This document shows positions 19,993 to 50,794 of a stretch of 64,000 nucleotides of DNA, piece after piece. This DNA is from an uncultured Negativicutes bacterium (GTDB lineage: Bacteria; Bacillota; Negativicutes; JBAXTZ01): positions 1 through 64,000 of the forward strand of contig CAVRJL010000006.1 of NCBI GenBank assembly GCA_963721525.1, given 5' to 3'. The notes beneath the pieces were generated by a model that was not told where the DNA came from, did no database searches, and was given only the letters and a program-made list of their open reading frames with translations. Within the stretch, counting starts at the first letter, position 1, and each line of letters opens with the position of its first letter. Made by a program: the position numbers and the translations under genes.

Positions 19993-20007
19993 TAAAATAC
20001 TTCTATT

Positions 20008-21060
20008 TTATATTATTCTACGAGCACCTATATACCGTTGAATATAATAACTATTGGATAAAGAATCTATTTTTACTCCTGCTGAATAAGAAGCATGAAT
20101 AAATTTTCCGTATCCCGTATATATACCTACATGCGAAGGCCCTTCAACATAAGTAGTAAAAAAGACTAAATCACCTGGTTCTAATGAAGACTTTTTTATT
20201 TTTCTACCTACTAAAAATTGACTATCAACTGTTCTTGGTAAGTGAAATCCTGCCTTGCCATAAACATATTTAACGAAACCCGAACAATCAAACCCTCTTG
20301 GAGACAATCCTCCACGCCAATAAGGTACTCCCGTATACCTATACGCAATTGAACACAAACCAAAAGATTTAGAAGAGTGCAAATTATTAACTGTTAAAGG
20401 AACAGGACTCTTACCGTGCAACTTTAATTGACATAAACTAGAAGATGTGAAAGAGTTCAAATTAGTTTTTAGCGAATGATGTTTTTGAGGTACAATATAA
20501 TCGATCCCTTTAAAAGGATCCAACATCTCATCGATCGGACTACGAACCTTGCCATGTGATATTATATTTGGGTTCGGCGGTCTTTTCCTTTTTATAATAA
20601 GACAATAAGGAACAGGCTCATAAGGAACAGGACTCTTACCGTGCAACTTTAATTGACATAAACTAGAAGATGTGAAAGAGTTCAAATTAGTTTTTAGCGA
20701 ATGATGTTTTTGAGGTACAATATAATCGATCCCTTTAAAAGGATCCAACATCTCATCGATCGGACTACGAACCTTGCCATGTGATATTATATTTGGGTTC
20801 GGCGGTCTTTTCCTTTTTATAATAAGACAATAAGGAACAGGCTCATAAGGAACAGGACTCTTACCGTGCAACTTTAATTGACATAAACTGAAAGATGTGA
20901 AAGAGTTCAAATTATTAACTGTTATTGGTAAATTTAAGTTGCATGACACTAACCCTCCAATTTTAAGATTAGAACTTAATGTTTGCGCATAGATTTCAGT
21001 TTTAATACAAATAAAACTGAAAAACAGTAAACTTAAAACTAATAAACGATTTTTTTTCAA
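20008..21060 (-). CDS. Secreted NlpC/P60 (C40) peptidoglycan endopeptidase with internal tandem repeats
   Basis: Signal peptide; C-terminal GVPYWRGG..P.GFDCSG, LEPGDLVFF, HVGIY and FIHA. Confidence 0.85.
   Translation of the reverse strand: MKKNRLLVLSLLFFSFICIKTEIYAQTLSSNLKIGGLVSCNLNLPITVNNLNSFTSFSLCQLKLHGKSPVPYEPVPYCLIIKRKRPPNPNIISHGKVRSPIDEMLDPFKGIDYIVPQKHHSLKTNLNSFTSSSLCQLKLHGKSPVPYEPVPYCLIIKRKRPPNPNIISHGKVRSPIDEMLDPFKGIDYIVPQKHHSLKTNLNSFTSSSLCQLKLHGKSPVPLTVNNLHSSKSFGLCSIAYRYTGVPYWRGGLSPRGFDCSGFVKYVYGKAGFHLPRTVDSQFLVGRKIKKSSLEPGDLVFFTTYVEGPSHVGIYTGYGKFIHASYSAGVKIDSLSNSYYIQRYIGARRII
20397..20914. repeat. In-frame 225-bp tandem repeat, about 2.3 near-identical copies
   Basis: AACAGGACTCTTACC recurs at 20401, 20626 and 20851, giving a 75-aa unit. 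Confidence 0.95.
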
Positions 21061-33930: not shown

Positions 33931-33967
33931 AAACTTAAACAAATATTAATAGTAAAATTATTTGAAA

Positions 33968-34358
33968 TTAAGTATCGATATGGATAAAAGACTTGTTGAA
34001 TGGACACGTCTTATTTTTGGCGGAAATGTTGTGGTAACAATTATTTGTCCGCATCATCGTCCGCAAATGGGAATAATTCGCCCTAAAGTATTTAAAAAGC
34101 CTCAAGAAGATTTTACAAAAGTAGGTAAAATTATAAAATTTAAAACAACCGTAGAAGAAAAAGATTTAAAAACAAAAATTATAAAAACTATAAAAAACAA
34201 TGAAGTAAATTGCAATCTAGAAGAAGCTAAAATAATTGTGGCAGGTGGCAGAGGATTGCAATTGCAAGAAAATTTTATTTTATTAAAAGAGTTAGCCAGT
34301 GTACTAGGTGGAGTTGTAGGAGCAAGTCGTGCTGTCGTAGATGTTGGTTTGATACCTT
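33968..34358 (+). pseudogene. etfA: Internal etfA fragment, inverted near-identical copy of 46070-46460
   Basis: 391 bp with about 10 mismatches to the intact gene; both ends of the gene are missing. Confidence 0.9.
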
Positions 34359-34381: not shown

Positions 34382-35620
34382 TCAAGATATCGCTTCCATT
34401 TCTCGTAATTTTAAATAATCTTTTTCCAATAAATTTTTATCTAAATTGTATAAAAGTACGAGTCCTTCTATTTCAGTGGAAGGACTCGTAGCCTTTGTTA
34501 GCGAATTATTATCAAAAACCCATTTATGAGCAATATTAGAAGATATAGATTTTAGATTATCATCATAAAAATTTCGTATATCTTGCAGAAGAACAACCTT
34601 TCCATTACCCACGAATTTTTGAGGAAATTCGAAATATTCATAAAGTTTATTTTTGATACCTGCTACTATCAACATAGCTTGATTGTAACCAAAAATTTTT
34701 GTTTCTAATTCACTTATTAATCCCTCAAGACCTACTATCCTGCAATTTATTTCCAATAAGAATAACTCAGTATTAACCTTGATCAGATCTGCATTAACCA
34801 TACCATTTTTTACACCGAGTGCAGTTAACACTTTCCTTACGTATTCAATAATATTTTGATTGTGTATGGGATTAATTGCATTCACTGAATGATATTGAGA
34901 TATACCCTTTACCAGAATTTTATCACAAGAATAAATTCCGCTTATGTAATGTTCCCCGTTAAAACTAAAACTATTAACCAGGTATTCTTCTCCATTAATA
35001 GATTCTTGCACAATGATCTCCTCTGACAAACTGGTATTTATTATCGAATTTCTGATTATAGTTACAAGCATTTGAATTTTTTTAAGAAATTCAATATGTG
35101 TTTCACATTTTATTGCACTTATACCAGAAACGGATCCGTTAGGTTTAATAAATATTGGAAAAACGAAGTCTTTTATCTGCTTCTTAAGTTTTTTTTCATT
35201 AATATCGTTAATGGAGAATTTGAATTGTTTTATTGCTTTTATTCCAGCCGAACGCAACGCTTCTTGCATATCAAATTTATTTTTTCGTATCTTACTTGTA
35301 GAAATATCATTTGCATATTTAGGTGTAACCATTGATGTAATGTATTCTACTAGTTCAAGATTATCTTCATTTCCAGCTACTACAAATGTTACGTTATATT
35401 TATTAGAAATGTCCTGCGCTGTAACTAACTCTATTCCTTTTGTACTATAAAAAATCGCTTCAAAACATTTTTTTTCTTCAGAATATTTGTTCAACCATAC
35501 AGGATCATCTATATTTAATAATAGAGATCCAATGTTGTTTTTATGTAATTCATCGAGTAAAGTAAGTATTGATGCGCGAGGATTTATTATCATACAATAT
35601 TCGGAATATCTATTGCTCAT
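34382..35620 (-). CDS. ATP-grasp domain protein (carboxylate-amine ligase-like)
   Basis: RKNKFDMQEALR, PIFIKP..S, VQESINGEEY and LLEINCR motifs. Confidence 0.8.
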   Translation of the reverse strand: MSNRYSEYCMIINPRASILTLLDELHKNNIGSLLLNIDDPVWLNKYSEEKKCFEAIFYSTKGIELVTAQDISNKYNVTFVVAGNEDNLELVEYITSMVTPKYANDISTSKIRKNKFDMQEALRSAGIKAIKQFKFSINDINEKKLKKQIKDFVFPIFIKPNGSVSGISAIKCETHIEFLKKIQMLVTIIRNSIINTSLSEEIIVQESINGEEYLVNSFSFNGEHYISGIYSCDKILVKGISQYHSVNAINPIHNQNIIEYVRKVLTALGVKNGMVNADLIKVNTELFLLEINCRIVGLEGLISELETKIFGYNQAMLIVAGIKNKLYEYFEFPQKFVGNGKVVLLQDIRNFYDDNLKSISSNIAHKWVFDNNSLTKATSPSTEIEGLVLLYNLDKNLLEKDYLKLREMEAIS

Positions 35621-35735
35621 ATTTTTCTCCTATTTTATATAATTTTATTTTTGAAATAATGTTATTAAAAAATACGTATTATTTAAAGCCCAAAGCCAAC
35701 AGTGTTTTTAGTATAAGTGAGAAATATTTTTTTGG

Positions 35736-37238
35736 TTATGTTCTAATAACAATTAACTTTTCCCATTCTTCATCACTTATCTTTAGATGTGTTAATTTAG
35801 ACATTAATATGACGTAAAAAAACAAAGCAGTTAGTACTCCAATAATCCAACCAAAAAGATATAAAAAACTCAATGACTCAAATAAACGACCCATTAAAGC
35901 TGGTATAATAGCAACTATCCAAACAACGAAGGCTTTTTTGTTAAATCCAGATGAATACCAATAACGATTATTTGTTTTTTCACTGTAAAGTTCGATTAAG
36001 TTAATTCGACGTTTTTTTATAATATAATAATCTGCAATAAAAATACCTGCTAATGGAGCTAACAAGACTCCATATAATCCCAACCAATCAAAAATATATG
36101 CATTTGCAGAACTAAGTAATTTCCATGGCATAATAATAATCCCAGATATAGCAGTAAAAGTTACAGCCATTTTATAAGAAATATGTTTTGGCCATATACT
36201 AGAAATATCATTAGCAGTAGCTAACATATTTGCGGCAACATTAAGCACAACTGTGGAAATAAGGATAGCTACCGAGCCTAAAATAATTACCCAACCATTT
36301 TTTGTTATTGATAAAACAGATACAGGATCCCAAATATACGCACCATAAAGAATTTTTGTTGCACCTGTAACAAAAATTCCTACAAATGAACAAATCATCA
36401 TAGTTCCTGGAAGACTAAATAAAATACTTACATTATGCTCTTTTTGACTTCTAACAAAGCGACTTAAATCAGGAATATTCAATGATAAAGTTGACCAAAA
36501 AGCTATGTTGGCTATCAATCCAGCAAGATATATTGACCAAAACTTAGTACCTATTAAGATATCACTTTTAAAATAAAAAGAAGAGAAAAAAGAATATCCT
36601 TTTTCTCTTAATTTTATTAAAAACAAAACAAATAGAGAAATAAAAAAAACTGCTAAAATTGGAGCTGCTATAGCTTTAGCTTTTTTTATTAAATTTATTC
36701 CTGAATAGCATAAATATGTGCATAAAACAAGTGTAAGAAAAAAACAAACAAAATCGACTATAATATTATTTTTTAGATTTGGAAAAAAATATATCGGAAT
36801 ACAACTAAGAGCTTGTCCTCCAATCCAACAATTTATTCCAAACCATCCAGCGCCAACTATTCTTCGTGCTAAAGCTGCAACCATAGCACCACGCATTCCA
36901 AAGCATAAGCGTGCAAATACTGGATAAGGGATTCCATACTTTATTCCTACATTTGAATTCAATATTATTATAAACATTATAATAATATTGCCAATTAATA
37001 CATTGGAAATCGTTTCCCAAAAACTTAATCCCATTGACATTAATCCTGATGCTAACATATAGATTGGCACATTAAAACACATAGATACCCAAAGAGCAAC
37101 AATATTATATACTCCCCATGAACGATCTTGTAGTTTAGTAGGTGCTAAATCATGGTTATACTAAACACTGTTTTTGCTCAACTTTTTTTCTGTTTTTTCT
37201 TCTAAATAAAACTTATTTTTAAATTGAACTTGTTTCAT
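35736..37238 (-). pseudogene. NCS1 nucleobase/hydantoin:cation symporter with an in-frame TAG at codon 26
   Basis: MKQVQF...SV*YNHDLAPT...W...WVSMCFN...YGIPYPV, GWFGINCWIGG, LNIPDLSRF, MPWKL. The TAG is at 37161-37163. Confidence 0.8.
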
Positions 37239-37355
37239 TAATTAATCTCCCATTCATATTCTATTATAACCACAGAGCACCTATTCATTTTGAACTTGTT
37301 TCATTAATTAATCTCCCATTCATATTCTATTATAACCACAGAGCACCTATTCATT
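37224..37355. repeat. Exact 66-bp tandem duplication of the NCS1 promoter/RBS/start region
   Basis: 37224-37289 is identical to 37290-37355. Confidence 0.95.
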
Positions 37356-37413
37356 ACAACAGTTAAATGTATAAGCATATTAAATCATTGATTTATAAAT
37401 AACATTTAAGGTA

Positions 37414-38628
37414 CTAAATATTATTTATTTTAGTATGAGATTTTTGTAATTTTAGTACTCCATACGGACAAACATGAATACATAATGAGCATCCATCACA
37501 GATTTCATTATTAATAGATATTTCTCCATCTATGAATTGTATAGCCGCTTGGCCGCTTTCCGAGCACGAAATAAGGCATTTAGCGCATTTTGTACATTTA
37601 TCTGGATTAATAACAGCAGCGCGCACAGGCCACAACATATTTAATTTTTCACGAGCTATAATTTTAGGGACAGCTTTACCAGTTATGTCTAGTAAATTAA
37701 TTATATTTTTCTTCTCTACATATTCTTCTAATCCTTTTAAAAGAGAGGTAATAATTTGATAACCACTAAGCATAACTTCTGTACATATTTGTACAGAACT
37801 TGAGCCAACTGCGTAGTGTTCTATAATATCTTGCCATTTAGATATACCGCCGATTCCAATAATCGGTACATTAACTGCTTGAGCTATTTGTGCAACGCAA
37901 CGTAGGGCTATCGGCTTAATTGCTCTCCCGGAATATCCCCCTAATGTTGAATGTCCATCAACTGTAGGTAAAGGTTCAAATGTATCAATATTTATTCCAA
38001 TTAGTCCTTGTGTTGTATTTATTGCAGCAATTGCATCTGTACCAGCCTCCACTACAGCTTTAGCCATATTTTGGATATAACTAATATTTGGAGTAAGTTT
38101 GGCAATTATCGGAATTCTTACTACTTTTTTTACCCAAGAAATAATCTGTGCTGAATTTTCTACATCTTTACCAACAGCTGCTCCCATAGCATTATCTAAA
38201 CGAAAATGTGGGCAAGATAAATTTATTTCTAAAGCATCTGCTCCAGCTTTTTCCATCCGCATTGCTAAATTTTGCCATGGTTCACGATTAACCTCAGCAA
38301 TAATACTTGCAATAACAACTTTATTTGGAAATTCACTTTTAAGCTCACGTATAGTTTTTTCCCAGTATTCACTAGGTTTTCTTGTTATACCTTCGAAATT
38401 AGCGAACCCTAAAATATCTTCATCTGTTCCTCGAATAACTCCAAATCTGTTAGGAGATTCATTTGTTAATAAATAATTTGACGCACAGGTTTTAGTAGAA
38501 ACACCTGCCCATCCTAATTTAAAAGCTTTTGCTATCCCTTCTTTGCTTTGAGTTGGAGATGCAGATGCCAAAATACAAGGATTTTCTAGTTCAATATTAC
38601 AGAATCGTACTCCTAATCTTGTACTCAT
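37414..38628 (-). CDS. preA: Dihydropyrimidine dehydrogenase subunit PreA
   Basis: LEINLSCPH, KLTPN, AINT, GGYSG.AIKP.AL and two C-terminal 4Fe-4S motifs. Confidence 0.9.
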   Translation of the reverse strand: MSTRLGVRFCNIELENPCILASASPTQSKEGIAKAFKLGWAGVSTKTCASNYLLTNESPNRFGVIRGTDEDILGFANFEGITRKPSEYWEKTIRELKSEFPNKVVIASIIAEVNREPWQNLAMRMEKAGADALEINLSCPHFRLDNAMGAAVGKDVENSAQIISWVKKVVRIPIIAKLTPNISYIQNMAKAVVEAGTDAIAAINTTQGLIGINIDTFEPLPTVDGHSTLGGYSGRAIKPIALRCVAQIAQAVNVPIIGIGGISKWQDIIEHYAVGSSSVQICTEVMLSGYQIITSLLKGLEEYVEKKNIINLLDITGKAVPKIIAREKLNMLWPVRAAVINPDKCTKCAKCLISCSESGQAAIQFIDGEISINNEICDGCSLCIHVCPYGVLKLQKSHTKINNI

Positions 38629-38689
38629 ATCTTATTCCCTTCTATCTTAATTAGTTTTATAGCGGATATAGCTATTATTCTTCATAATA

Positions 38690-39432
38690 TTAAAAATTAA
38701 GTTCTTTTTTTATTTCATATATTTGAATTATAAATGTTGCTGTTAAGATGGCAACTCCTCCAATAATCTGCAATCTTTCCATTAGTTCTCCTAGTGTTAT
38801 AAAAGCAATAATAGCTGCAATTACAGGTTCAATTGCAGCTGTTATTGCTACATTCGTAGGCGGTAAATAATGTACTCCTACATAAAATAGGCTATAGGGT
38901 AATAACGTATAACAAATTATTACATAAACATACATCCATAAAGGTACGATGGTAATATTTTGCCAATTTATTGATACAGGTACAAATAAATAAATTAAAG
39001 ATGCAAATAAGAAAGAATAAAAAATAATTGTAAATGGCTTGTATTTTTTACTAAGAGATTTACTTTTTAAAATATTGAAAGAATATAAAATTGCGCTCAT
39101 TATACCAATTGCTATCCCAAAATTATTTAATGTGCTAAAAGAATATGATGAAATCATCAGTAATCCGCCAAATCCTATAATTCCTAAAAATACAAAATGA
39201 ATACCATCTTTATAATATATTTTAAAACATTTCGGAACAAAAATCCCAAGTATAAAAAATAATATAATAGTTGTTCCTATTAAACGAATTTTTAACAAAA
39301 CTAAAGGATTTATTCCACATTTGTAAATATATTTTGTAACAGATCCGCCTCCACCTAACATTATAGTAGCTACTACTATTGCTACATACCCTATTATAGA
39401 GTTATTTTTAATAAAGCTAATTTTCTTATCAT
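38690..39432 (-). pseudogene. EamA/DMT transporter, apparently frameshifted at the 5' end and internally shortened
   Basis: EPVIAAI.A...LGE.....QIIGG motif. The ATG overlapping the upstream TGA is out of frame with the body, and the ORF is short for a two-repeat EamA. Confidence 0.55.
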
Positions 39433-40688
39433 CTTGTATAACTATTCCCTAAACCATAGCTTATAATTTTATCAACTAATCTCATAAAAGCTCGAACTGC
39501 TGTTTCTATATTATCATCTGAAGTATTTTCCTCTTTGCAATGGGATAACCCTCGTTCAGACATTACGAACATCATAACTGTGGGCAGTATCTTAGACATT
39601 TCAGCTGCGTCATGTAATGGACCAGAATAAATTGTTGTTCTTTCACCAGTTTCTTCCACTACTGCTTCTTTACAATATTCAACTAATTTCGAATCAAATA
39701 TAGTAGGATCAATAGTCCAAATTTTTTCCCATACGGCTTTGACTGAATATTCTTTAGCAGCTATTTCTACAGCTTTTCTAGCTTCTTCATTCATTAATAA
39801 CAATTTACTTTTATCAATAGAACGCTGGTCAAGAGAAATAATACAACTTTCCGGGACAATAGTTACTATATCTGGTCTTATAGCTACTTTGCCCACAGTA
39901 CATACTCCCTCGTACTTTAAAGCTATTTCTCTGAAAGCTAGAGCCGACTGTGCTGCTGCCAAAAATGCATCTTGTCTTAATAAGGTTGGAAATGATCCGG
40001 CATGCGCAGCTTGTCCTTCAAATTTAATATAATATCTTTCCACTCCAGTTATTCCATAAACACAGGCAATAGTTTTTTTATTGCTTTCTAATATAGGTCC
40101 TTGCTCAATATGTAATTCCGCAAAACCCAATCCTTTTCTTTTCTTAAATTGAGTATGTGCGTTCTCTATAGTATTTAAGTTGACACCATATTCAGCTAAA
40201 ACCTCTCCAATCTTATATCCGTTATTGTCAATTCTATGGATAATTTCACGTATATCTAATGTACCGCTTGCTGCCGATGACCCCATTAAACTACGACCAA
40301 AACGTGCTCCTTCTTCATCAGCCCAATTTACTGCATAAATAGTTTTTTTCGGACGAATTCTACTATATCTCTTAATGACTTCAAGCGCAGTGACTGCCCC
40401 TAAAGAACCATCTAGCCAACCGCCATTAGGAACACAATCAATATGGCTTCCGATTATAATAGATTCTACTGTTTCTCCAGTTAATTTTGCCCATGTATTT
40501 CCCGCTGCATCAATTGTTACCTTAGCTCCATATGATGTAGCTTTATTTGCAAACCAATTACGTGCTTTTTGCCAAACGGGAGTCCAAGCTACTCGTTGAG
40601 CTCCATATTCGTTCGAAGTTAACTCAGCTAGTTCACGTAAGTTAATAATTACATTTTTGCCTGCATTGATTAAAGAATCTTTTTTCAT
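39429..40688 (-). CDS. M20 Zn-dependent N-carbamoyl-amino-acid hydrolase (beta-ureidopropionase-like)
   Basis: GSHIDCVPNGGWLDG, DEEGARF, ELHIEQGP, HAG, HDA and SHCKEE motifs. Confidence 0.88.
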   Translation of the reverse strand: MKKDSLINAGKNVIINLRELAELTSNEYGAQRVAWTPVWQKARNWFANKATSYGAKVTIDAAGNTWAKLTGETVESIIIGSHIDCVPNGGWLDGSLGAVTALEVIKRYSRIRPKKTIYAVNWADEEGARFGRSLMGSSAASGTLDIREIIHRIDNNGYKIGEVLAEYGVNLNTIENAHTQFKKRKGLGFAELHIEQGPILESNKKTIACVYGITGVERYYIKFEGQAAHAGSFPTLLRQDAFLAAAQSALAFREIALKYEGVCTVGKVAIRPDIVTIVPESCIISLDQRSIDKSKLLLMNEEARKAVEIAAKEYSVKAVWEKIWTIDPTIFDSKLVEYCKEAVVEETGERTTIYSGPLHDAAEMSKILPTVMMFVMSERGLSHCKEENTSDDNIETAVRAFMRLVDKIISYGLGNSYTR

Positions 40689-40709
40689 TATTTCCTCTCA
40701 TTCTTAATT

Positions 40710-42092
40710 TTATGATATTTTCGAACGATAAATAAACTTACCTTCTGGTTGCGTCAAAACTAACTTACCTTTTTCTACTATATGTTTTCCGCCTAAAAAA
40801 ACATGTTCAATCGATCCTTTTTGTATAAAACCTTCATACGGTGTATAATCTACCGTTTGATGTAAATCTTTTACAGAAATTATCCTCGTTCCTTGAGGGT
40901 TATATATGATAATATCAGCGTCTGTGCCGATAGCAATTGTTCCTTTTTTTGGAGCAAGTCCAAAGGTAACTGCAGAATTATATGAAGTTAGTTTCACAAA
41001 TTGATTTAAAGAAAGTTTTCCAGTACATACTCCTTCTGTATACATTAAAGCAAATCGAGTTTCAATTCCAGGTATACCATTAGGTATAGTACGAAAGTCC
41101 GTATAGTCAGCTATTTTTTGATCAACAAAATTGAATGAACAATGATCTGTAGCAATAATATCGATTAAATCATTTTGTAATGCCTTCCATAAAATTTTAT
41201 TATCTCTTCTTTTACGTAAGGGTGGAGACATAACAAATTTTGCCCCTTCTATTCCAGGTGCAATGTAACGTGAATCATCTAATAATAAATATTGCGGACA
41301 AGTTTCTAAGTATACTTTTTGCCCATTTTGCCTTGCTTTAAGGGCTATATTTAAACCTTTAGCTGAACTAAGATGTACTATATATAGTGGGGCTTTTGCT
41401 ATACAAGCAATTGTTATTGCTCTTGATATTGACTCTGCTTCGAGATCATCTGGTCTAGTTAAGGCGTGGTAAATAGGATCATTTTGTCCTTTAGAAATTG
41501 CTTCTTTTATTAAGGCATTGATAATATCTCCATTTTCGCAATGTACTCCTACTAATATTCCGGATTGGCGAGCTGTTTTAAATATTTTATACATTGTTTC
41601 GTCTTCGATTTGAAATAAATTTTTGTATGCTAAAAATAATTTTATCGTAGATACCCCTGTTGTTTTAGGCAAAGTTTTAATTTCTTCCACAACCTCATTA
41701 TTACAATCAGTTATTGCTACATGGAACGCATAATCGGTAAAACATTTACCTGCAGCGCGCATATGCCAACTATCTATTGCTTGTTGTAAACTTTGTCCCT
41801 TTTTTTGTAAAGAAAAGTCAATAATAGTAGTTACACCGCCCATAATTGCAGCTTTCGTACCGGTAAAAAAATCATCACTTGTTGTTACATTTTCAAAAGG
41901 CATATCCAAATGAGTATGAGGATCAATTGTTCCAGGAAATAAATAATTGCCCAAAGCATTTATTGTCCTCGCATTATCATCTAACAAATCAATGCCTATT
42001 TGGCTTATTTTTTCGTTTTCAATTAATACGTCCGCTTTTACAACATCGCTGGCTGTAACTATTGTCCCATTTTTGATTAAAAATCTCATCAC
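40710..42092 (-). CDS. hydA: Dihydropyrimidinase / D-hydantoinase
   Basis: IDPHTHL, KLFLAY, VHCENG, VHLS, ETCPQYL, SPPLR and TDHC motifs. Confidence 0.93.
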   Translation of the reverse strand: MMRFLIKNGTIVTASDVVKADVLIENEKISQIGIDLLDDNARTINALGNYLFPGTIDPHTHLDMPFENVTTSDDFFTGTKAAIMGGVTTIIDFSLQKKGQSLQQAIDSWHMRAAGKCFTDYAFHVAITDCNNEVVEEIKTLPKTTGVSTIKLFLAYKNLFQIEDETMYKIFKTARQSGILVGVHCENGDIINALIKEAISKGQNDPIYHALTRPDDLEAESISRAITIACIAKAPLYIVHLSSAKGLNIALKARQNGQKVYLETCPQYLLLDDSRYIAPGIEGAKFVMSPPLRKRRDNKILWKALQNDLIDIIATDHCSFNFVDQKIADYTDFRTIPNGIPGIETRFALMYTEGVCTGKLSLNQFVKLTSYNSAVTFGLAPKKGTIAIGTDADIIIYNPQGTRIISVKDLHQTVDYTPYEGFIQKGSIEHVFLGGKHIVEKGKLVLTQPEGKFIYRSKIS

Positions 42093-42473
42093 TAGCTCCT
42101 TTTTTTGATTATAGTTTACTTTATATTAATCGAAGTAGAAAAGTAACTAAAAAAAATAAACTAAAAAAATAAGTTTAATGAATTAAAATATCTAATATTA
42201 TCGATGAAACTCTAGCTATATCTCTTTACACATAAAATATCATAAAGAATGTTATGAGATTTTATTTTAAATTAAAGAACTGCAATTATAAAAATATACT
42301 TCATTATATTACAGTATCTGTAAGAAGCAACATTTTTTATGAGATCTTTTAAAACTAAAATAAATTATATCTTTTAAGTAAATTTATATTCGTTTAATGC
42401 AGAAAATAGATATACAAAAAATTAACTATACTTTTAATACGTTAATTACGATTGACTTTAAAGTGTAGTTTTC

Positions 42474-42508
42474 GAAATAACACTTTAGTGAAACTAAAGT
42501 GTTATTTC
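42474..42508. terminator. Perfect 15-bp hairpin downstream of gmk
   Basis: GAAATAACACTTTAG-TGAAA-CTAAAGTGTTATTTC. Confidence 0.65.
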
Positions 42509-42558
42509 TCCCATCTACATTGGCATTTATAATAATAATTATTTATATACATAATCCA

Positions 42559-43185
42559 TTAATAATTATTAGAATTACTATTTACAATTTTCGTTATAAA
42601 ATCTGTAGTGCGTTCAACTTTGCAATATTCGGCTTTTATTATAGAATAAAATTTTTCAACAGCATCATCTAATACGTCATTTATAATTATATAGTTATAG
42701 TTGTGAGCCATTGCTAATTCTCTTTTCGCATATCCTAATCTTTGTCTTATTATTTTACTCCCATCTGTCCCACGTTTATTTATTCGCATTATTAATTCTT
42801 CAAATGATGGAGGCGCTACAAATATCAATACGGCATGAGGGAACTTAGCTCTGACTTGTAATGCTCCATGTATATCAATCTCTAAAATAAAATCTTCACC
42901 TTTTTTAATACATTCTAATAAAATTTTTATAGGAGTTCCGTAAAAATTACCATATACTTCTGCCCATTCTAATAACTCGTCATGATGAATCATTGTTTTA
43001 AAAGCTTCTTTTGTAATAAACCAATAATTTTTACCGCTAGTTTCTCCTGTACGTGGTTGTCTTGTTGTTGTCGATATAGATAAATTAATTTTAAGTTTTG
43101 AATATTGTTCAAGCAATGTTTTTATTAACGTGCCTTTACCTGCACCTGATGGTCCTGAAACTACAAACAAGATGCCTTCACGCAT
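42559..43185 (-). CDS. gmk: Guanylate kinase
   Basis: SGPSGAGKGT, STTTRQPR.GE and EWAEVYGNFYGT motifs. Confidence 0.97.
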   Translation of the reverse strand: MREGILFVVSGPSGAGKGTLIKTLLEQYSKLKINLSISTTTRQPRTGETSGKNYWFITKEAFKTMIHHDELLEWAEVYGNFYGTPIKILLECIKKGEDFILEIDIHGALQVRAKFPHAVLIFVAPPSFEELIMRINKRGTDGSKIIRQRLGYAKRELAMAHNYNYIIINDVLDDAVEKFYSIIKAEYCKVERTTDFITKIVNSNSNNY

Positions 43186-43261
43186 TTTTAGCTCCTTATT
43201 TTTGTTTACTTATTTATAAATTTTTACCTAGATATTTTTATTAGGCAATAATATGATAAAA

Positions 43262-44083
43262 TTAAAGTATTTCCCCGTAAAATACTTCTTGTGCGTCTCC
43301 AATTTTTAAAATATGATTATTTTCCCCCCACATTAAGTCCAGTGTACCTCCTTCCATTTTAACTTTTACTTCTTTTTTAGTTTTACCCAAAAGGTTTCCC
43401 ACAACTACACTTGCAGCTGCTCCTGTTCCGCAAGCAAGAGTACTTCCAACTCCTCTTTCCCAAATACGTATATAAATTTCAGAAGGGTTCATTATCTGAA
43501 CAAATTCAACATTTGTACCCCGGGGGAAAATAGGATATTTTTCTATTTTTTGGGCCAAGTTTTCTAAACTAATTTTACTTATATCTTCAACAAAACTAAC
43601 GCAATGAGGCTCTCCTATATGTATAGCATGCACAATGAGTTTTTTATTGTCAATAATAATTTCTTTGTTTAACGACGATTCATCTTCCCTTCCCAACATA
43701 GGGATTGAAGACTTTGTCCAATTAGGTTTGCCTAAATCGATACATATTTTATCGTTGTCAAATATTTGGGCTACTACTAATCCAGACAGTGTTTCAAAAG
43801 AAATATTCGATTTATATTTTATATATTTATATTTATACAAATGTTTTACAAAGCAACGCGCAGCATTTCCACACATTCTAGCTTGGGAACCATTGTTATT
43901 AAATATTTGCATGTTGTACTCAGTAGTTATTCCCTTTTTAATGAAAACTAATCCGTCTGCTCCGATACCAAAATGTCTATCGCAAATCCTTTTAACAAGA
44001 AAATTAGTTTGTTTATATTCATCTTCTAAATTATCTATTATTATAAAATCGTTACCAAGTCCATGCCATTTATGAAATTTCAT
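43262..44083 (-). CDS. dapF: Diaminopimelate epimerase
   Basis: HGLGNDF, MCGN, PHCV and ERGVG.TLACGTG; ATG at 44083 with an RBS. Confidence 0.95.
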   Translation of the reverse strand: MKFHKWHGLGNDFIIIDNLEDEYKQTNFLVKRICDRHFGIGADGLVFIKKGITTEYNMQIFNNNGSQARMCGNAARCFVKHLYKYKYIKYKSNISFETLSGLVVAQIFDNDKICIDLGKPNWTKSSIPMLGREDESSLNKEIIIDNKKLIVHAIHIGEPHCVSFVEDISKISLENLAQKIEKYPIFPRGTNVEFVQIMNPSEIYIRIWERGVGSTLACGTGAAASVVVGNLLGKTKKEVKVKMEGGTLDLMWGENNHILKIGDAQEVFYGEIL

Positions 44084-44485
44084 ATTTTCCTCTTCCTCAA
44101 CAAAAAAATAGATTTTAAAAATCAAATTTATAAAAAAATATCGATTGAAATACTACCTTTAAATTATACAAACTTTAAATTATACAAATTTTATATATTT
44201 TGTTTCTTTTTAAAATACTAAGATATAAATAGCACAGATTATTATTTAGTGTATATATATATAATTTTTATAATAGAAACCTTGAAAATCTAAAATTATA
44301 TAAAAATTAATACCAAAATGATGAAAACAATTATTGGTTTGAAAAATTTAATATTGATATAAAAACTTATATATTATTATGATAAAATTTCGATTTTTAG
44401 AAATTTGTAATGTATGCAAATGAAAAAATTATCTTCATAAAGTTAAAAAAAATTTAATTTGTAGCAATTATAGTTAGAAGCAATT

Positions 44486-45613
44486 TTACTCTTCTTTTAT
44501 AAACCAACTAAATAAAAACGCCATCAAAGGTAGCCACATTAAAAAAATAAAAACAGTAGTTACATCATAACAGTCTGCAATTTTACCTAGTAATATTGTT
44601 GCTCCAGCTCCCATTCCCATAGAAAGACCCATAGTAAGAGCTGAAGCAGTGGCAATTTTATTGGGCATAAGTTTTTGCGATATTACAATTAAGCTTGTCC
44701 ATGCAGCAGCCATTAAACTATTATTTAAAATTATCAAAAAACAGGATAAATATAATGACGAATTTAAAAATAAAAATATTAGTAATGTTGAAGGCAAAGT
44801 TGTCCAAAGAATCACTTTTCTACTGCTAAATTTATCTGTGAACACTCCACCAAGATAGGTACCTATCATTCCAGAAAGTTGAGATAGCGCTAGTATTAAC
44901 CCACCAAATGATTCATTTTGTCCTCTATAAGCTATAAGATACATTGGTAAAAAAGCTAACACTCCTGAAATTATAAACGAACGTAAAAATAACACCATTA
45001 GAACCATTAATAAAGAGATAACTATTTTACGACCTATAATAGCTTTAGGATATTGTAAATTTATTTTTGACATTGATTTCGCTGCTTTTAATAATGGTAA
45101 AAATAATAACAAAGAAGGTAAACAAAAAATAAATTCCAAATTTATTTTTTTACTTAGAAATATGCCCATTATTAACGAACCTAATGCTGAACCAACAAAC
45201 CCACCTAATGTAAATAATCCTATACCTTTGCCAGTATTTTTACCACTGAAATAGTTAGCGCAGCGCGCTCCTTCTGGATGAAAAACTGAGCTTCCTATTC
45301 CGGAAAAAATAATCCATAAAAAAACCGCATAATAATTTTTAACATATATGCACATTAGAAAACCTATTACAGATATTAAACAACCTAACGGCATATATAT
45401 AGACTGATGTTTTCTATCGCTTAAAACCCCAAATATTGGTTGACTGATAGAACCTGTTATCCAAAATACCATAGGCAAAAAAGACATTTGCGCAAAATTC
45501 AAGCCAAATTTATTTTTAAAATAAGGTAAAGCTATTAACAGAGCTCCACTTGGAATATCAACCACTAAATGGCCTAAAGCCAGTATCCAAACTTTATAAG
45601 ATATTTTATTCAT
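44486..45613 (-). CDS. MFS transporter (Fsr-like)
   Basis: LGHLVVD, QPIFGVLSDR and FHPEG motifs; about 12 hydrophobic segments. Confidence 0.85.
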   Translation of the reverse strand: MNKISYKVWILALGHLVVDIPSGALLIALPYFKNKFGLNFAQMSFLPMVFWITGSISQPIFGVLSDRKHQSIYMPLGCLISVIGFLMCIYVKNYYAVFLWIIFSGIGSSVFHPEGARCANYFSGKNTGKGIGLFTLGGFVGSALGSLIMGIFLSKKINLEFIFCLPSLLLFLPLLKAAKSMSKINLQYPKAIIGRKIVISLLMVLMVLFLRSFIISGVLAFLPMYLIAYRGQNESFGGLILALSQLSGMIGTYLGGVFTDKFSSRKVILWTTLPSTLLIFLFLNSSLYLSCFLIILNNSLMAAAWTSLIVISQKLMPNKIATASALTMGLSMGMGAGATILLGKIADCYDVTTVFIFLMWLPLMAFLFSWFIKEE

Positions 45614-45670
45614 ATTTTCTCACATATTAAATTTTTATTTATATTCCATAGCAAATAATTTAATTCAACC

Positions 45671-45783
45671 AAAAAAAGAAAACCGGCGTTCGCCGGCTTT
45701 AATTCTTATATCCGCACAGTAAATCATCCTCCCCACTTTCGTCCTTCGCCAACAGACGACACTCCCAATGCTTTACTGTTTCA
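45671..45783 (-). promoter_or_regulatory. Structured leader with terminator; unassigned riboswitch/attenuator candidate
   Basis: GC-rich island: ACAGTAAA/TTTACTGT stem, inner TCGTCT/GGACGA stem, then the terminator GCCGGCG-AA-CGCCGGT with TTTCTTTTTTT. Confidence 0.65.
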
Positions 45784-45788
45784 AGTTT

Positions 45789-45817
45789 ATTATAATAGTT
45801 TTGATAAAATTATTCAA
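45789..45817 (-). promoter_or_regulatory. SigA promoter of the MFS leader
   Basis: TTGAAT-17 nt-TATAAT directly before the leader. Confidence 0.6.
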
Positions 45818-45833
45818 GTAATGCAAAAAAACT

Positions 45834-47030
45834 TCATAAATTTTTTTGTAGTTTAAAAGCCTTAATTAACTCAGGTATAACCTCAAACAAATTTCCTACT
45901 ATTCCATAGTTAGCTACTTTAAATATTGGAGCATCAGAATCTTTATTTATAGCTACAATAATGTCTGAACTTCTCATACCTGCGATATGTTGTATTGCTC
46001 CGCTAATTCCGCAAGCAAAGTATATTTTTGGACTTACAGTTTTTCCAGTTTGCCCTATCTGTTGAAATGAAGGTATCCAACCAGCATCTACGACAGCACG
46101 ACTTGCTCCTACAACTCCACCTAGTACACTGGCTAACTCTTTTAATAAAATAAAATTTTCTTGCAATTGCAATCCTCTGCCACCTGCCACAATTATTTTA
46201 GCTTCTTCTAGATTACAATTTACTTCATTGTTTTTTATAGTTTTTATAATTTTTGTTTTTAAATCTTTTTCTTCTACGGTTGTTTTAAATTTTATAATTT
46301 TACCTACTTTTGTAAAATCTTCTTGAGGCTTTTTAAATACTTTAGGGCGAATTGTTCCCATTTGCGGACGATGATGCGGACAAATAATTGTTGCCATAAC
46401 ATTTCCGCCAAAAGCAGGACGTGTCCATTCAACAAGTCTTTTGTCCATATCGATACTTAAATTAGTACAATCTGCAGTAAGACCGGTGCTTACTCTACAA
46501 GCAATACGAGGGCCTAAATCACGGCCATCAGGTGTTGCTCCCAATAATATAACCGAAGGGTTATTTTCTTTAATAAGGTCTACAAACGCTTTAGTATAAG
46601 TATCTGTTGAATATTGTGTAAAAATTTTATCTTCAATTAAATATACTTTATCTGCACCATTGGCAAAAATATTTGTACAAAGGTTTGCGACATCATTCCC
46701 TATCAATACTCCACATAATCCTGTTTTTAAATAGCTAGCAAGTTTACTCCCTTCTCCAAGCAATTCTAATGATACATCTTTTATTTTATTCTCAAAATGT
46801 TCTATATAAATCCATATATCTTTATAGTTATTTATATTTACCGCACCAAATATTTCTTCTTCTTCTCGTAAAATTGCTTTTTGAGGACATACATTAATGC
46901 AAAGACCGCATACTGTACAACTTTCTCCTATTATAGGCTTGCAATCTACCATGTGTATCGCGGAAAAAGGACATTGATTTACACACAAACCACATCCTAC
47001 ACATTTCTCTTCAATCACCTTTACTGCCAT
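45834..47030 (-). CDS. etfA: Electron transfer flavoprotein alpha subunit with N-terminal 2x[4Fe-4S] domain
   Basis: CVGCGLC...CP and CTVCGLC...CP; GLTADCT, RPAFGGN, QIGQTGK and GISGAIQH. Confidence 0.95.
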   Translation of the reverse strand: MAVKVIEEKCVGCGLCVNQCPFSAIHMVDCKPIIGESCTVCGLCINVCPQKAILREEEEIFGAVNINNYKDIWIYIEHFENKIKDVSLELLGEGSKLASYLKTGLCGVLIGNDVANLCTNIFANGADKVYLIEDKIFTQYSTDTYTKAFVDLIKENNPSVILLGATPDGRDLGPRIACRVSTGLTADCTNLSIDMDKRLVEWTRPAFGGNVMATIICPHHRPQMGTIRPKVFKKPQEDFTKVGKIIKFKTTVEEKDLKTKIIKTIKNNEVNCNLEEAKIIVAGGRGLQLQENFILLKELASVLGGVVGASRAVVDAGWIPSFQQIGQTGKTVSPKIYFACGISGAIQHIAGMRSSDIIVAINKDSDAPIFKVANYGIVGNLFEVIPELIKAFKLQKNL

Positions 47031-47040
47031 ATTTCCTCCT

Positions 47041-47829
47041 CTATCCGCAAGCTTTGCAAAGCATTTCAACTAACATTTTTGCTGCTGTTTCTGCAGTTTC
47101 ACCGCTAATTATTTTACCCTGTCCTCTTTGTTCGGGAGTAAAAATATTTCTAACTTGCGTAGGGCTTCCTATTAAACCTAATCGTTTAAAATTGACATCT
47201 AACCCCTTTGCAGTAATAACTTCAATGCTTTCTTTCTTAAGTGCTTTTAGGCAACCCCAAACATTTCCTGTGCGTGGTTCATTTAAAGATTTCACTGCCG
47301 TTAGTAAAACAGGAATTTTTACTTCAACTACTTCAAAATAGTCATCTTGTTCTCTATAAACATGTAATAATTTTGTATCTTTTATTTCAATTTTTGCTAC
47401 ATAAGTAACCTGGGGAATACCAAGATATTCTGCTATTTCTGGCCCTACTTGTGCGGTATCTCCATCAATAGCCTGTTTACCGCAAAATACTATATCAAAA
47501 GAACCTAACTTCTCTATAGCTTTAGATAAAATATAACTTGTAGCTAATGTATCCGATCCGCTAAATTTTCTATCCGAAACTAAGACTGCTCTATCCGCCC
47601 CCATAACAATACATTCTTTTAACGCTTCTGCTGCTTGGGGTGGTCCCATTGTTATAACTGTTACATTTCCTCCACATTGCTCTTTTATTTTCAATGCTCC
47701 TTCTAAAGCATGTTTATCAAAAGGGTTTACAATACTTGGTACACCCTGTCTTATAAGAGTATTTGTTGTAGAATCAATGCGTACCTCTGTAGTATCAGGT
47801 ACTTGTTTTATACATACAATCATATTCAT
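47041..47829 (-). CDS. etfB: Electron transfer flavoprotein beta subunit
   Basis: VCIKQVPDT, NPFD, GKQAIDGDTAQVGP and GSPTQV motifs. Confidence 0.95.
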   Translation of the reverse strand: MNMIVCIKQVPDTTEVRIDSTTNTLIRQGVPSIVNPFDKHALEGALKIKEQCGGNVTVITMGPPQAAEALKECIVMGADRAVLVSDRKFSGSDTLATSYILSKAIEKLGSFDIVFCGKQAIDGDTAQVGPEIAEYLGIPQVTYVAKIEIKDTKLLHVYREQDDYFEVVEVKIPVLLTAVKSLNEPRTGNVWGCLKALKKESIEVITAKGLDVNFKRLGLIGSPTQVRNIFTPEQRGQGKIISGETAETAAKMLVEMLCKACG

Positions 47830-47847
47830 AACATAAATCCCTCTCAA

Positions 47848-48984
47848 TCATTTCAACATAGCGTTTGCTACTATTATACGCTGAATTTGGTTTGTGCCTT
47901 CATATATTTGCGTGATTTTCGCATTACGCATTAATCTCTCCACTGGATATTCACGACTATATCCATAGCCACCTAATATTTGTATCGCATTACTTGTAAT
48001 TTCCATTGCTACATCTGAGGCATACATTTTTGCCATAGCACTTTCTTTAGAAAATGGCAATCCATTATCTTTAAGCCATGCCGCCCTATATACCATTATT
48101 CGTGCTGCATCTGTTTTTGTTTGCATATCAGCTAACATGAAAGATATTGCTTGATTAGAAGCTATAGGCTTACCAAATTGACAACGAGTTTTAGCATAAC
48201 TCACAGCATGATCAACTGCAGCTTGAGCTATACCTACAGCTTGAGATGCAATCCCAATCCTGCCCCCATCCAAAGACGCCATAGCTATTTTAAACCCTTG
48301 ACCTTCTTTGCCAAGTAAATTTTTTTTAGAAATACAACAATTTTGAAATACTAATTCCATAGTAATAGATGTATTTATTCCCATTTTATGTTCACGTTTC
48401 CCGAAAGTAAAACCTGGCGTCCCTTTTTCTACAACAAAAGCAGAAATTCCTCTAATTCCTTTTGCTTTATTAGTCATAGCAATTACTATATAAGTTTCTG
48501 CCTCACCACCGTTTGTTATGAAAATTTTATTTCCATTTAAAACATATTCATCACCAACTAAAATAGCAGTTGTTTCTTGAGCACTAGCATCGCTACCTGC
48601 ATTGGCTTCAGTCAACCCAAAGGCTCCTAAATTTTTTCCTTCGCAAATAGGTATTAAATACTTTTGTTTTTGATTTTCAGTTCCATAAATAAATATTGGC
48701 CATGCACATAATGAGGTAGCCCCTATAGCTAAACATGTGCCATCATCATATTTACTTAATTCTTCATTAGCTATTATATAACTTAGATAATTTGCGTTAG
48801 CACCACCATATTCTTTTGGAAACGGCAAAGCTTGAACTCCTAATTTTAGCATTTCATTAACAAGATGACGATTAAATTCTTGTTTTTCATCACGCTCGAC
48901 AATAGTAGGAGCTAATTTTTTTTCTGCAAACTCTTTGCAAAGTTTTTTAATTAATATTTGCTCTTCTGTAAATCTAAAATCCAT
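47848..48984 (-). CDS. bcd: Short-chain acyl-CoA dehydrogenase (Bcd-like)
   Basis: FGLTEANAGSD, KIFITN, LDGGRIGIA, GGYGY and KITQIYEGT motifs. Confidence 0.9.
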   Translation of the reverse strand: MDFRFTEEQILIKKLCKEFAEKKLAPTIVERDEKQEFNRHLVNEMLKLGVQALPFPKEYGGANANYLSYIIANEELSKYDDGTCLAIGATSLCAWPIFIYGTENQKQKYLIPICEGKNLGAFGLTEANAGSDASAQETTAILVGDEYVLNGNKIFITNGGEAETYIVIAMTNKAKGIRGISAFVVEKGTPGFTFGKREHKMGINTSITMELVFQNCCISKKNLLGKEGQGFKIAMASLDGGRIGIASQAVGIAQAAVDHAVSYAKTRCQFGKPIASNQAISFMLADMQTKTDAARIMVYRAAWLKDNGLPFSKESAMAKMYASDVAMEITSNAIQILGGYGYSREYPVERLMRNAKITQIYEGTNQIQRIIVANAMLK

Positions 48985-49405
48985 AAATAAGTCTCCTGAA
49001 ATTTAAATGTAGTTAATTTTAACAACAAATGATAATAATAACAATTTTAAAAATTTATAGGTTAAATTAATTTAATTTTATTCTCATATTATTATTATTT
49101 AAAATTATATTATAAAAAATAAAAATAGAGTTTACTTTTAATTATCCATATATTGAACCGAGGATAAGAGCATTAGGTTAGTATTGTATAAATTGTATAA
49201 ATTGATACTTTCTCAAAGCATCTGTTATAGCTATAAAATATTCATTGAAAGAAAGCGTAGTTTAAAGATAAAATGAACTATAAGATATAAAGAAAAACCA
49301 AATATTAACGAATATTATTTTTATTGTTTTAATTTTTTTTGTTTGTTATCATGCCATTGTTAATAATAATGTATAAAATTAAAACTAGGAGTTATTATAA
49401 TCATT

Positions 49406-49981
49406 ATGAAAAAGAAAATTCCAGTAAGCGTATCAGCAAGACATGTACATCTTAAACAGGGAGATGTAGAGAAATTATTCGGAAAAGGAGCTGAGTTAAC
49501 TGTTTTTAAATCTTTATTTCAACCCGGTTCCTATGCTTGCAATGAAAAAGTAGACATTGTTACAGATAAAGGAATGATTAAAGGGGTGCGGATATTGGGT
49601 CCAATGAATAAACAAACGCAAGTAGAAATATCTATGACAGATGCTTTAAAACTTAAAGTAAATATACCTATACGTGCTAGCGGTAATTTAAAAAATTCAG
49701 CTGCTTGTAAGTTAGTTGGTCCTGCTGGTGAATTAGTTTTAAAAGAAGGACTTATTGGAGCCCAGCGTCATATACATGCTAGTAAAAAAGATGCAGAAGA
49801 ATTGGGTATCTGTGATAAACAGATTGTAAGTGTTTGTTGTATCGGAGTAAGGGGATTGAAATTTGATAATGTATTAGTTCGCATTAATAACGAATTCAAA
49901 TTAGAAATGCATATTGATACTGACGAAGCAAATGCATGTTTTATAGGGGAATGCAATAATGAAGCACAAATTGTGAATTAA
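49406..49981 (+). CDS. pduL: Phosphate propanoyltransferase PduL
   Basis: VSARHVHL, QTQVEIS.TD, QRHIH and EMHIDTDEANA motifs. Confidence 0.92.
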   Translation: MKKKIPVSVSARHVHLKQGDVEKLFGKGAELTVFKSLFQPGSYACNEKVDIVTDKGMIKGVRILGPMNKQTQVEISMTDALKLKVNIPIRASGNLKNSAACKLVGPAGELVLKEGLIGAQRHIHASKKDAEELGICDKQIVSVCCIGVRGLKFDNVLVRINNEFKLEMHIDTDEANACFIGECNNEAQIVN

Positions 49982-50017
49982 ACTTAGAATATTAAAAAAG
50001 GAAATACGGAGGACAGA

Positions 50018-50401
50018 ATGGAAGAAGTAATTATTAGAGTGCGAATGAGTCAATCAGATGCTCGTTATGGTGGAAATCTTATTGCTGGGGCAAAAATGTT
50101 GGAAATAATTGGAGATGTAGCAACAGAAATATTAATTAGAAACGACGGAGATGAAGGTTTATGTTGCGCTTATGATAACATCCAATTTTTAGCTCCTGTT
50201 TATCCGGGAGATTATGTTGAGGCAACAGGAAAAATAACAAATATTGGAAATACATCGCGTAAAATAATTTTTGAAGTATGTAAGGTAGTTAGTCCCTGTT
50301 TAGATGTATCCTCCTCAGCTGCTGATTTTTTATTAGAACCTATTATTGTATGTAAAGCCAGTGGAATTTTTGTAGTCCCTAAAAAATGCCAACGTAAATA
50401 A
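50018..50401 (+). CDS. kal: Hotdog-fold beta-aminoacyl-CoA ammonia lyase (Kal/Acl family)
   Basis: IRVRMS..DA.YGGNL..GA, GDVATE, DGDEGL, FLAPV..GDY.EA.G, GNTSRK and VVPK..QR. Confidence 0.85.
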
Positions 50402-50593: not shown

Positions 50594-50794
50594 ATGATAC
50601 AAAATAATGAATTATTAAAAAAAGCAGGGGAGAGCAAATATACTTTAGTTATTATGGCAGCGAAAAGAGCCCGTGAAATAGTTGATGAAAATAAAATGAA
50701 TTGCGAAAAACAACATAAACCAGTTATATGTGCTTTAAAAGAAATTTTAGAAGAAAAAATTACTTTTGAACGACGACGTACAGGTTTAAAATAA
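50594..50794 (+). CDS. rpoZ: RNA polymerase omega subunit
   Basis: SKYTLVIMAAKRAR and KPV..AL.EI motifs. Confidence 0.92.
   Translation: MIQNNELLKKAGESKYTLVIMAAKRAREIVDENKMNCEKQHKPVICALKEILEEKITFERRRTGLK

Follow-up and report, generated by a model that had tools for sequence, protein, structure and literature searches.

The question raised by this locus is whether pyrimidine breakdown and propionate formation have been joined in one gene cluster. The window (bases 1-64000 of contig C6) belongs to an assembly of 769,348 bases in 16 contigs, with about 30% G+C and 81% complete. Between positions 34382 and 50401, genes for reductive pyrimidine catabolism lie near bcd-etfB-etfA, the phosphotransacylase gene pduL and a gene for a lyase of the Kal family (kal2). 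The initial annotation proposed that these genes form a single route from uracil to propionate, or from thymine to isobutyrate. All of the components that it named (NCS1, preA, hydA, the carbamoylase, bcd-etfB-etfA, pduL and the Kal-family lyase) are present there by profile matches. However, the stretch is probably a rearrangement mosaic of three modules, coupled at most through ferredoxin, and not one uracil-to-propionate operon. The modules would be a reductive pyrimidine operon ending at beta-alanine, bcd-etfBA together with pduL, and a young kal duplicate. These are modules of known kinds, newly arranged, with kal2 as the single oddity that can be tested. The genes of the second and third modules are as follows.

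45834-48984, minus strand: bcd-etfB-etfA, 72-73% identical to those of G001 and G002; etfA carries two [4Fe-4S] motifs.
49406-49981, plus strand: pduL phosphotransacylase gene, the surviving duplicate (NF011652, 245 bits; cut-off, 209).
50018-50401, plus strand: kal2, a rapidly evolving in-paralogue of the gene for the 3-aminobutyryl-CoA ammonia lyase of the lysine pathway (NF052388, 163.5 bits; cut-off, 160).

G001 and G002 are outgroups of the same family, with genomes of 2.4 and 3.4 Mb. The present assembly is G000 in the genome numbering, C denotes a contig and L a fetched locus stretch. The profile scans covered 393 + 16 + 36 proteins, from 653 open reading frames of at least 100 residues in the assembly, and passed over some long housekeeping genes and, for the later contigs, most frames shorter than 190 residues. 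Because these scans are incomplete, absences from the assembly rest on six-frame family searches. The ftsH gene itself was not found in the 81% complete assembly, and therefore PreT/Fdx1, PanC, aminotransferase III, Rnf, thiolase and PFOR are described here as not found rather than lost.

Lysine is fermented to butyrate and acetate by KamA, KamDE, Kdd, Kce, Kal, AtoDA and Bcd-EtfAB. All the dedicated genes of this pathway are located on C15, in a single run of kamE-kamD-kamC-kamB-kamA-kdd-kce-kal1-atoA-atoD-two permeases-ackA. The KamA, KamD, KamE, Kdd, Kce and Kal proteins of C15 exceed their NCBIfam cut-offs, and two further genes are, from the gene order, presumably kamB and kamC. The C15 cluster contains neither bcd nor a phosphotransacylase gene. 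Bcd of the window is the sole acyl-CoA dehydrogenase in the assembly (one match at E<=1e-30), the window pduL is the only intact pduL found there, and the six-frame search of the assembly gave no Pta/Ptb match (PF01515). Since the C15 cluster has no such genes and the window copies are the sole ones, bcd-etfBA and the intact pduL of the window likely serve the C15 lysine cluster. The lysine-fermentation set is thus complete at the level of the genome (kamA, kamDE, kdd, kce, kal, atoDA and bcd-etfAB), and the predicted route from lysine uses KamA, KamDE, Kdd, Kce, Kal1, Bcd-EtfAB, AtoDA and PduL with AckA or Buk, yielding butyrate and acetate. Compared with the classical pathway, Bcd-EtfAB, AckA and a phosphotransacylase are present, but PduL replaces Pta, no thiolase or Rnf was found in the assembly, and there is a second, diverged kal. 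PduL favours propionyl-CoA yet shows substrate plasticity, according to an excerpt of PMC4784909. The initial annotation noted the absence of lysine genes from the window, but the complete pathway lies on C15. Likewise, among the gaps listed earlier, no preT match and no Act were found in the assembly, but AtoDA (the only CoA-transferase found in it), AckA and butyrate kinase are encoded elsewhere in it. Genes for glycolysis, for a hydrogenase of three subunits and for a 2x[4Fe-4S] ferredoxin are also present in the assembly.

The lyase itself is tied to lysine fermentation by descent. The NF052388 cut-off is also exceeded by Acl2-type proteins, so the clade of kal2 is decided by the tree. In the 39-row tree, kal2 is sister to kal1 (SH-aLRT 89), within the lysine-Kal clade (94) and outside the Acl clade (98). 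Its best match among 595 proteins is kal1 (73% identity in protein, 80% in DNA), while it is 36% identical to Acl2. The kal2-kal1 pair has a dS of 0.69, compared with at least 2.2 to G001, and a dN of 0.139. At 12 diagnostic columns (118 Kal proteins compared with 120 Acl2-type proteins), kal2 has eight Kal-type, no Acl-type and four other residues. By these sequence comparisons the window lyase descends from lysine Kal and not from Acl. Kal-family genes are found in 21 of 301 genomes of the class and 79 of 401 of the phylum (own genome counted). Among 51 short kal loci, mostly best matches, 47 have lysine genes within 1.5 kb and one has hydA. G001 and G002 have a single kal, inside the lysine cluster; kal2 has no lysine neighbours.

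The sequence of kal2 has diverged at positions that are otherwise nearly fixed. It has changed 14 of 74 near-invariant columns, compared with four in kal1 and at most eight in the others (n=122), and it carries 18 changes of its own against three in kal1 (p=0.0015). Five of the 46 columns conserved in the Kal and Acl sets alike are altered. The conserved residues His16, Asp23 and Phe49 are missing. His16, replaced by Arg, is found in 122 of 122 close homologues and in Acl2 too; in an alignment with 5SZU, read by eye, position 16 corresponds to the catalytic Asn of hotdog thioesterases. The kal2 model has the hotdog fold (pLDDT 91, TM 0.89 to Acl2 4MTU); after Acl2, the structures nearest to it are those of acyl-CoA thioesterases. 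Kal2 would be a lyase, relaxed or in part disabled, that selection has retained but that does not serve as the main ammonia lyase. At 50021-50198, kal2 is matched without difference by a contig of run X1. This speaks against a sequencing error there, although the run may not be independent.

The arrangement of the genes can be explained by duplication, reciprocal loss and inversion. The outgroups keep the modules apart: pyd is between ftsH and valS, bcd-etfBA is before the MFS gene, and pduL is between mtaD and ackA. In G001, bcd-etfB-etfA-MFS...dapF...gmk-rpoZ-metK-priA is contiguous. In the present genome a pduL remnant with stops and deletions (E 3e-13) is located on C15 at about 155965-156334, between mtaD and rnhC-ackA. 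It is about 7 kb upstream of kal1 on the same strand, and its order and direction match those of pduL-kal2, which are 37 nucleotides apart in the window. Because a decayed pduL sits at the ancestral site near kal1, pduL-kal2 is best read as a duplication relic, the two ends of a duplicated segment. The segment, pduL...ackA-lysP-atoDA-kal, would have been duplicated next to bcd; the duplicate would have lost its middle and the original its pduL, leaving pduL-kal2. The separation of gmk from rpoZ would be due to an inversion whose two ends lie at about 42.1-42.5 and 50.4-50.6 kb. The following features lie in or around this part of the window.

33965-34358, plus strand: inverted partial etfA copy, a rearrangement scar (394 nucleotides, 97% complementary to 46070-46463).
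42559-45613, minus strand: gmk, dapF and the MFS gene, a housekeeping block that in G001 comes after etfA and before rpoZ-metK.
45679-45700, minus strand: hairpin resembling an intrinsic terminator, after etfA.
50594-50794, plus strand: rpoZ, separated from gmk, 48% identical to the G001 gene that follows gmk; it marks the right breakpoint of the inversion.

The last of these we take to be rpoZ from its sequence and the gene order. The stretch lies on two strands and is interrupted by gmk, dapF and the MFS gene; a single inversion would rejoin gmk (42559, minus strand) with rpoZ (50594, plus strand). The etfA fragment at 33965 shows neutral evolution (pN 0.029, pS 0.023). An alternative history, in which pduL-kal2 was inserted between gmk and rpoZ, has an equal number of steps. 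No sister genome was found in a scan of contigs for PydA (six loci, two close), a PydA alignment (four close among 80) or a scan of metagenomes for HydA (none), and the order of rearrangements is therefore reconstructed, not observed. The pieces from sequencing runs are short, identical to the assembly, and none spans a junction. New gene neighbours are common in this genome, as 20 of 52 consecutive pairs of G001 orthologues are no longer within 6 kb of each other. The mosaic would illustrate how, in a reduced genome, known genes can take on the look of a new catabolic island through duplication, reciprocal loss and inversion.

The pyrimidine operon is on the minus strand and has the following features.

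40710-42092, minus strand: dihydropyrimidinase HydA/PydB (TIGR02033, 590 bits; cut-off, 393).
39429-40688, minus strand: M20 N-carbamoyl-amino acid hydrolase of the PydC type, 68% identical to that of G002, metal motifs intact (TIGR01879, 286 bits; cut-off, 204).
38690-39433, minus strand: EamA-family exporter, damaged, with an in-frame deletion of 55 residues (aligned with the G001 and G002 orthologues).
37414-38628, minus strand: dihydropyrimidine dehydrogenase PydA/PreA without PreT (NF006183, 425 bits; cut-off, 335).
37224-37355, strand not applicable: perfect 66-nucleotide tandem duplication across the NCS1 start region.
35736-37241, minus strand: NCS1 nucleobase permease, interrupted (PF02133), 68% identical to the G001 orthologue over 37241-35754.
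34382-35620, minus strand: ATP-grasp ligase, substrate unassigned, the last gene in the direction of the operon (PF13535; NF005543, 147 bits, below the cut-off of 302).

PydA, PydB and PydC are in one cluster, as expected for the Pyd pathway. PydA, the dihydropyrimidinase, the carbamoylase, Bcd and PduL all retain their catalytic motifs. PydA consists of an FMN domain and one 2x[4Fe-4S] domain, with NLSCPH and both Fe-S motifs intact. There is no PreT in the pyrimidine cluster, and no PF14691 match was obtained in the six-frame search of the 81% complete assembly. Only the C-terminal ferredoxin domain of PydA was found, with no separate Fdx1 gene in the assembly, although such a gene could be unassembled. 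According to a passage of PMC7332683, a PydA that lacks the FAD/NAD(P)H domain depends on ferredoxin, and PydAc of the C. pasteurianum type has a separate gene for a second ferredoxin domain. As in the PydAc Pyd pathway of Clostridium chromiireducens, in the account given there, PydA without PreT is next to PydB, PydC and a nucleobase permease, and ferredoxin is present. In contrast to that pathway, there is one ferredoxin domain, no Fdx1 and no PydD/PydE was found in the assembly, and the transporters are damaged. Unlike in the window, an aminotransferase III gene and an Fe-ADH gene adjoin the pyd genes in G150; the present assembly has no match to aminotransferase III (PF00202). A gene for a 2x[4Fe-4S] ferredoxin is located at C6:76218. 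PydA without PreT would take electrons from ferredoxin, and the reduction of uracil or thymine would drain reduced ferredoxin from a bifurcating Bcd-EtfAB, with beta-alanine or 3-aminoisobutyrate, NH3 and CO2 as the end products. Pantothenate synthesis was considered as a sink for beta-alanine and rejected, as no PanC was found in G000, G001 or G002.

Both transporters of the pyrimidine operon (NCS1 and EamA) are damaged, as had been noticed at first sight. The NCS1 gene has a single stop, an in-frame TAG at 37161-37163, upstream of the first helix, and EamA has lost the 55 residues mentioned above. The operon may be starting to decay. When G001 and G002 are combined, the resulting gene order begins with NCS1; hydA-pydC-eamA-pydA-ncs1 (35736-42092) is a circular permutation of it. 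The close PydA orthologues (58-65% identity; L019/L020, L074, L170-L175, L090-L093) are mostly solitary in Negativicutes, and are twice found near D-aminoacylase-like genes.

The chemistry of the uracil-to-propionate route proposed earlier is sound, and fitting gene sets were found in other Bacillota. G052 has a lyase, hydA, the carbamoylase and a family III CoA-transferase together (L230, G052:C18). G448 (L232/L262, G448:C10) has an acyl-CoA dehydrogenase, two lyases, a family III CoA-transferase, preT, preA, NCS1, hydA and the carbamoylase. Both loci came from longer loci of more divergent or doubled Kal-family matches. The G448-type transferase was found at E<=1e-150 in 10 of 301 genomes of the order of G448 (G448, G772, G782, G812, G826, G882, G933, G939, G969 and G987; stretches including L253-L261). 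All ten of these Act-like loci have one or more lyases and hydA; the carbamoylase is present in nine, preT in seven, a full acd-etfB-etfA in six and a partial one in two. They are not independent, nine being in one family and two genera. Two loci have tandem lyases matching Acl2 at E 4e-80, and the others have a divergent pair, named AclA/AclB here. In AclA/AclB (L232:10042-10893, L233:25-901, L255-L261), each protein has half of the hotdog active-site motifs, and the genes are sometimes duplicated around the CoA-transferase. AclA has lost the His16/Asp23 side and kept the GDV..E and GDE side, and AclB is the reverse; the pair is predicted to be an obligate heterodimer. As judged from gene content, the Act-Acl-pyd loci are likely a real gene set for uracil or thymine to propionate or isobutyrate. 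The co-occurrence in 10 of 10 loci and the split AclA/AclB support uracil-to-propionate fermentation in other bacteria; no description of it was found in the literature searched, with subscription journals largely outside the search. In L231 (G117:C29), L228 (G051:C104) and L241 (G592:C9), Acl2-type lyases are found beside 2-oxoacid oxidoreductase-like genes, with an acyl-CoA dehydrogenase in two of the three. The stretches fetched for these loci hold no pyd genes, and the loci may represent a further route for beta-amino acids.

The window shares with these sets a clustered lyase, dihydropyrimidinase and carbamoylase and, for most of them, acyl-CoA dehydrogenase-Etf. On the other hand, a family III CoA-transferase is found in all of the sets, together with a lyase of either the Acl2 or the AclA/AclB type, and PreT in most of them, whereas the window carries neither marker, having no Act and no Acl-clade lyase. 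No PF02515 or Act-like match was found in the 81% complete assembly. The best Act-like matches in G001 and G002 are 38-48% identical, compared with 67-68% for the Act-like genes of G051 and G052. According to part of PMC13067684, Act alone, and not Pct-type transferases, transfers CoA to beta-alanine above a marginal level. Anaerotignum (Clostridium) propionicum, with Act, Acl1, Acl2 and acryloyl-CoA reductase (PDB 4MTU and the same part of PMC13067684), resembles the window in the hotdog fold of the lyase and in an acyl-CoA dehydrogenase with EtfAB nearby. It differs in that the lyase here is of lysine-Kal descent, there is no Act, and Bcd falls below the AcrC cut-off (497 bits against 640), a weak test since the dehydrogenase of the G448 cluster is also below (436). 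The genes of the Act-Acl-Acd sets are only 29-56% identical to those of the window, so that its layout was not inherited from such loci. Linkage of kal or pduL to hydA/preA in relatives was not borne out, as none of 15 related PydA loci carries kal, pduL or bcd in flanks of 1.6 to 40 kb (G001, G012, G015, G033, G036, G047, G054, G069, G087, G150, L074 and L090-L093). Of the three observations by which the initial annotation would have its route refuted, two were made for this genome, namely the lysine pathway elsewhere and this lack of linkage. With the C15 lysine pathway, a lyase of Kal descent and no Act found, the route is probably not the one used here.

Several observations weigh against a mosaic. 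Thiolase, Rnf and PFOR were not found in six-frame searches of the 81% complete assembly, which leaves the lysine route, as assembled, without an ATP-yielding step. Electron bifurcation by Bcd-EtfAB is what we assume from its family. Among the close PydA orthologue loci (58-69% identity), 12 of 13 have no adjoining dihydropyrimidinase, though several contigs are short, and the substrate of PydA thus rests on operon context. The second ferredoxin-domain gene of the C. pasteurianum type has no counterpart found in this assembly. With the inversion undone, pduL-kal2 would stand back to back with bcd, and hydA would come immediately after kal2 in the same orientation. The dN/dS of kal2 against kal1 is about 0.2, and its ribosome-binding site and frame are intact while the twin pduL decayed. 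In simulations of neutral copies with substitutions only, 0.35 changes per site left the frame open in four of 500; the figures for 0.2 and 0.1 are 14 and 100 of 500. Because of the intact frame and ribosome-binding site and the few neutral copies that stay open, kal2 is regarded, from its sequence, as having been under some selection and not as a dead gene. Four of 12 kal2-specific changes match pyrimidine-linked AclA, with a chance of 0.004-0.012 under three nulls. Finally, the assembly may have missed a gene for Act, PreT or Fdx1, given its completeness and the lack of ftsH.

On these grounds one may consider, as an unlikely case, that Kal2 has been recruited into uracil and thymine fermentation. 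The beta-alanine or 3-aminoisobutyrate formed by PydA, HydA and the carbamoylase would be activated by AtoDA, or by an Act whose gene is missing from the assembly, and Kal2, probably as the half-site partner in a mixed dimer with Kal1, would remove ammonia; Bcd-EtfAB, PduL and AckA/Buk would lead to propionate or isobutyrate and ATP, and ferredoxin from Bcd would feed PydA. It is similarly doubtful that a reduced anaerobe has arrived anew at pyrimidine fermentation by duplicating the lyase of its lysine pathway. Kal2 would then have taken on the half-site design of AclA by convergence and, paired with Kal1, would deaminate beta-alanyl- or 3-aminoisobutyryl-CoA, so that uracil and thymine join the Bcd-EtfAB/PduL/kinase line of lysine and a ferredoxin-only PydA closes the redox loop. 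The selected retention of kal2 with its 18 changes would fit, as would the contiguous block before the inversion, the recurrence of the gene set in other Bacillota, and UraA, which could stand in for the broken NCS1. Kal2 is also AclA-like in its pattern, with the His16/Asp23 side lost and the GDVATE and GDEG side kept, and the two have in common I22, I31, C49 and V87 (in 11, 11, 11 and 10 of 11 AclA sequences); I31 and C49 are found in none of 128 family representatives. In the hotdog enzymes FabA and ACOT7, two catalytic residues of one site come from different subunits, as stated in a portion of PMC2698920. However, the AclA comparison is post hoc, with one of three groups and 11 sequences that are kin, and two of 50 full-length representatives likewise match kal2 at four of 12 positions; the likeness is a lead, not a result. 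Moreover, no Act was found in the assembly, the duplicated atoDA was not retained, Bcd has not evolved faster (its dN to G001, 0.21, resembles that of kamA and kdd), and both operon transporters are damaged. If true, Kal1/Kal2 would be a two-gene natural experiment on substrate change in 3-aminoacyl-CoA lyases, useful for routes from beta-alanine to acrylate and methacrylate.

It is improbable that Kal2 has shifted to acyl-CoA thioesterase activity and CoA recycling, co-expressed with PduL in lysine fermentation, with the pyrimidine genes as bystanders. The structural neighbours after Acl2 and the short distance behind pduL suit such a role, and with no thiolase found in the assembly acetoacetyl-CoA could trap CoA; but the position of the thioesterase catalytic Asn is Arg in kal2, and the thiolase may be unassembled. 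Less probable still is a function of PydA, the hydantoinase and the carbamoylase in the reductive uric-acid pathway, in the roles of UacX, HyuA and YgeY together with dpaL and ssnA of C12. The PydA homologue UacX is described in that pathway in a section of PMC12507026, and the assembly has dpaL (TIGR03528, 625 bits) and an ssnA truncated at the contig end, with no YgfK-type match. Nevertheless, HydA is 63% identical to the pyd-operon copies of G001 and G002 and 38-49% to HyuA copies of urate clusters, the YgeY of those clusters is unmatched here, and PydA is 34% identical to the gene next to hyuA in G036 that resembles PydA. Moreover, what remains of the urate cluster may lie beyond ssnA in DNA that was not assembled. 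The window trio is not orthologous to HyuA/YgeY and is not beside ssnA, dpaL or xdhD. It is equally hard to credit that the ATP-grasp ligase at the operon end consumes beta-alanine to form a beta-alanyl peptide. ATP-grasp ligases of beta-alanine exist (carnosine synthase), and the gene is on the same strand, 116 nucleotides after NCS1. On the other hand, it is not beside pyd in G001 or G002, and there is no close homologue to judge by, only the protein itself being matched at E<=1e-40.

The setting of the mosaic is a small genome. Judged from an Omp85 protein encoded in the window and from the closest PydA matches with a named organism, which are Negativicutes in the search of genome contigs, it is a reduced, diderm genome of the Negativicutes type. 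It would be a very small one of this type to retain lysine, pyrimidine and purine breakdown. On C12, dpaL and ssnA of the reductive urate pathway are located at 18106-20393, cut at the contig end, and a guanine deaminase is encoded on C16. A region of C15 (L064:11925 to L065:5798) has uraA, FdrA, AllG, a cyclase, a C-N hydrolase and a three-subunit enzyme of the xanthine-dehydrogenase family, and the search concerning this region gave no match to carbamate kinase. If this set oxidises uracil, the oxidative and reductive branches could together dismutate it.

The remaining observations concern the assembly. The large subunit of the hydrogenase is divided between C6 and C15; a broken gene was considered, but the halves at C6:89074-89982 and C15:3-821 look more like an assembly break. 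Contigs C1, C2, C4, C7-C10, C13 and C14 mostly give no Pfam match at the thresholds used. They hold a second, fragmented ATP synthase and polymerase pieces, and may be foreign or decayed DNA. The promoter scan found 96 where 105 were expected. C5 9667-11314 overlaps window positions 1-1652 at 99.5%, and C5 and C6 probably join. A direct repeat of 293 nucleotides, with copies 99% identical and 225 nucleotides apart, is located at 20397-20914 of the window.

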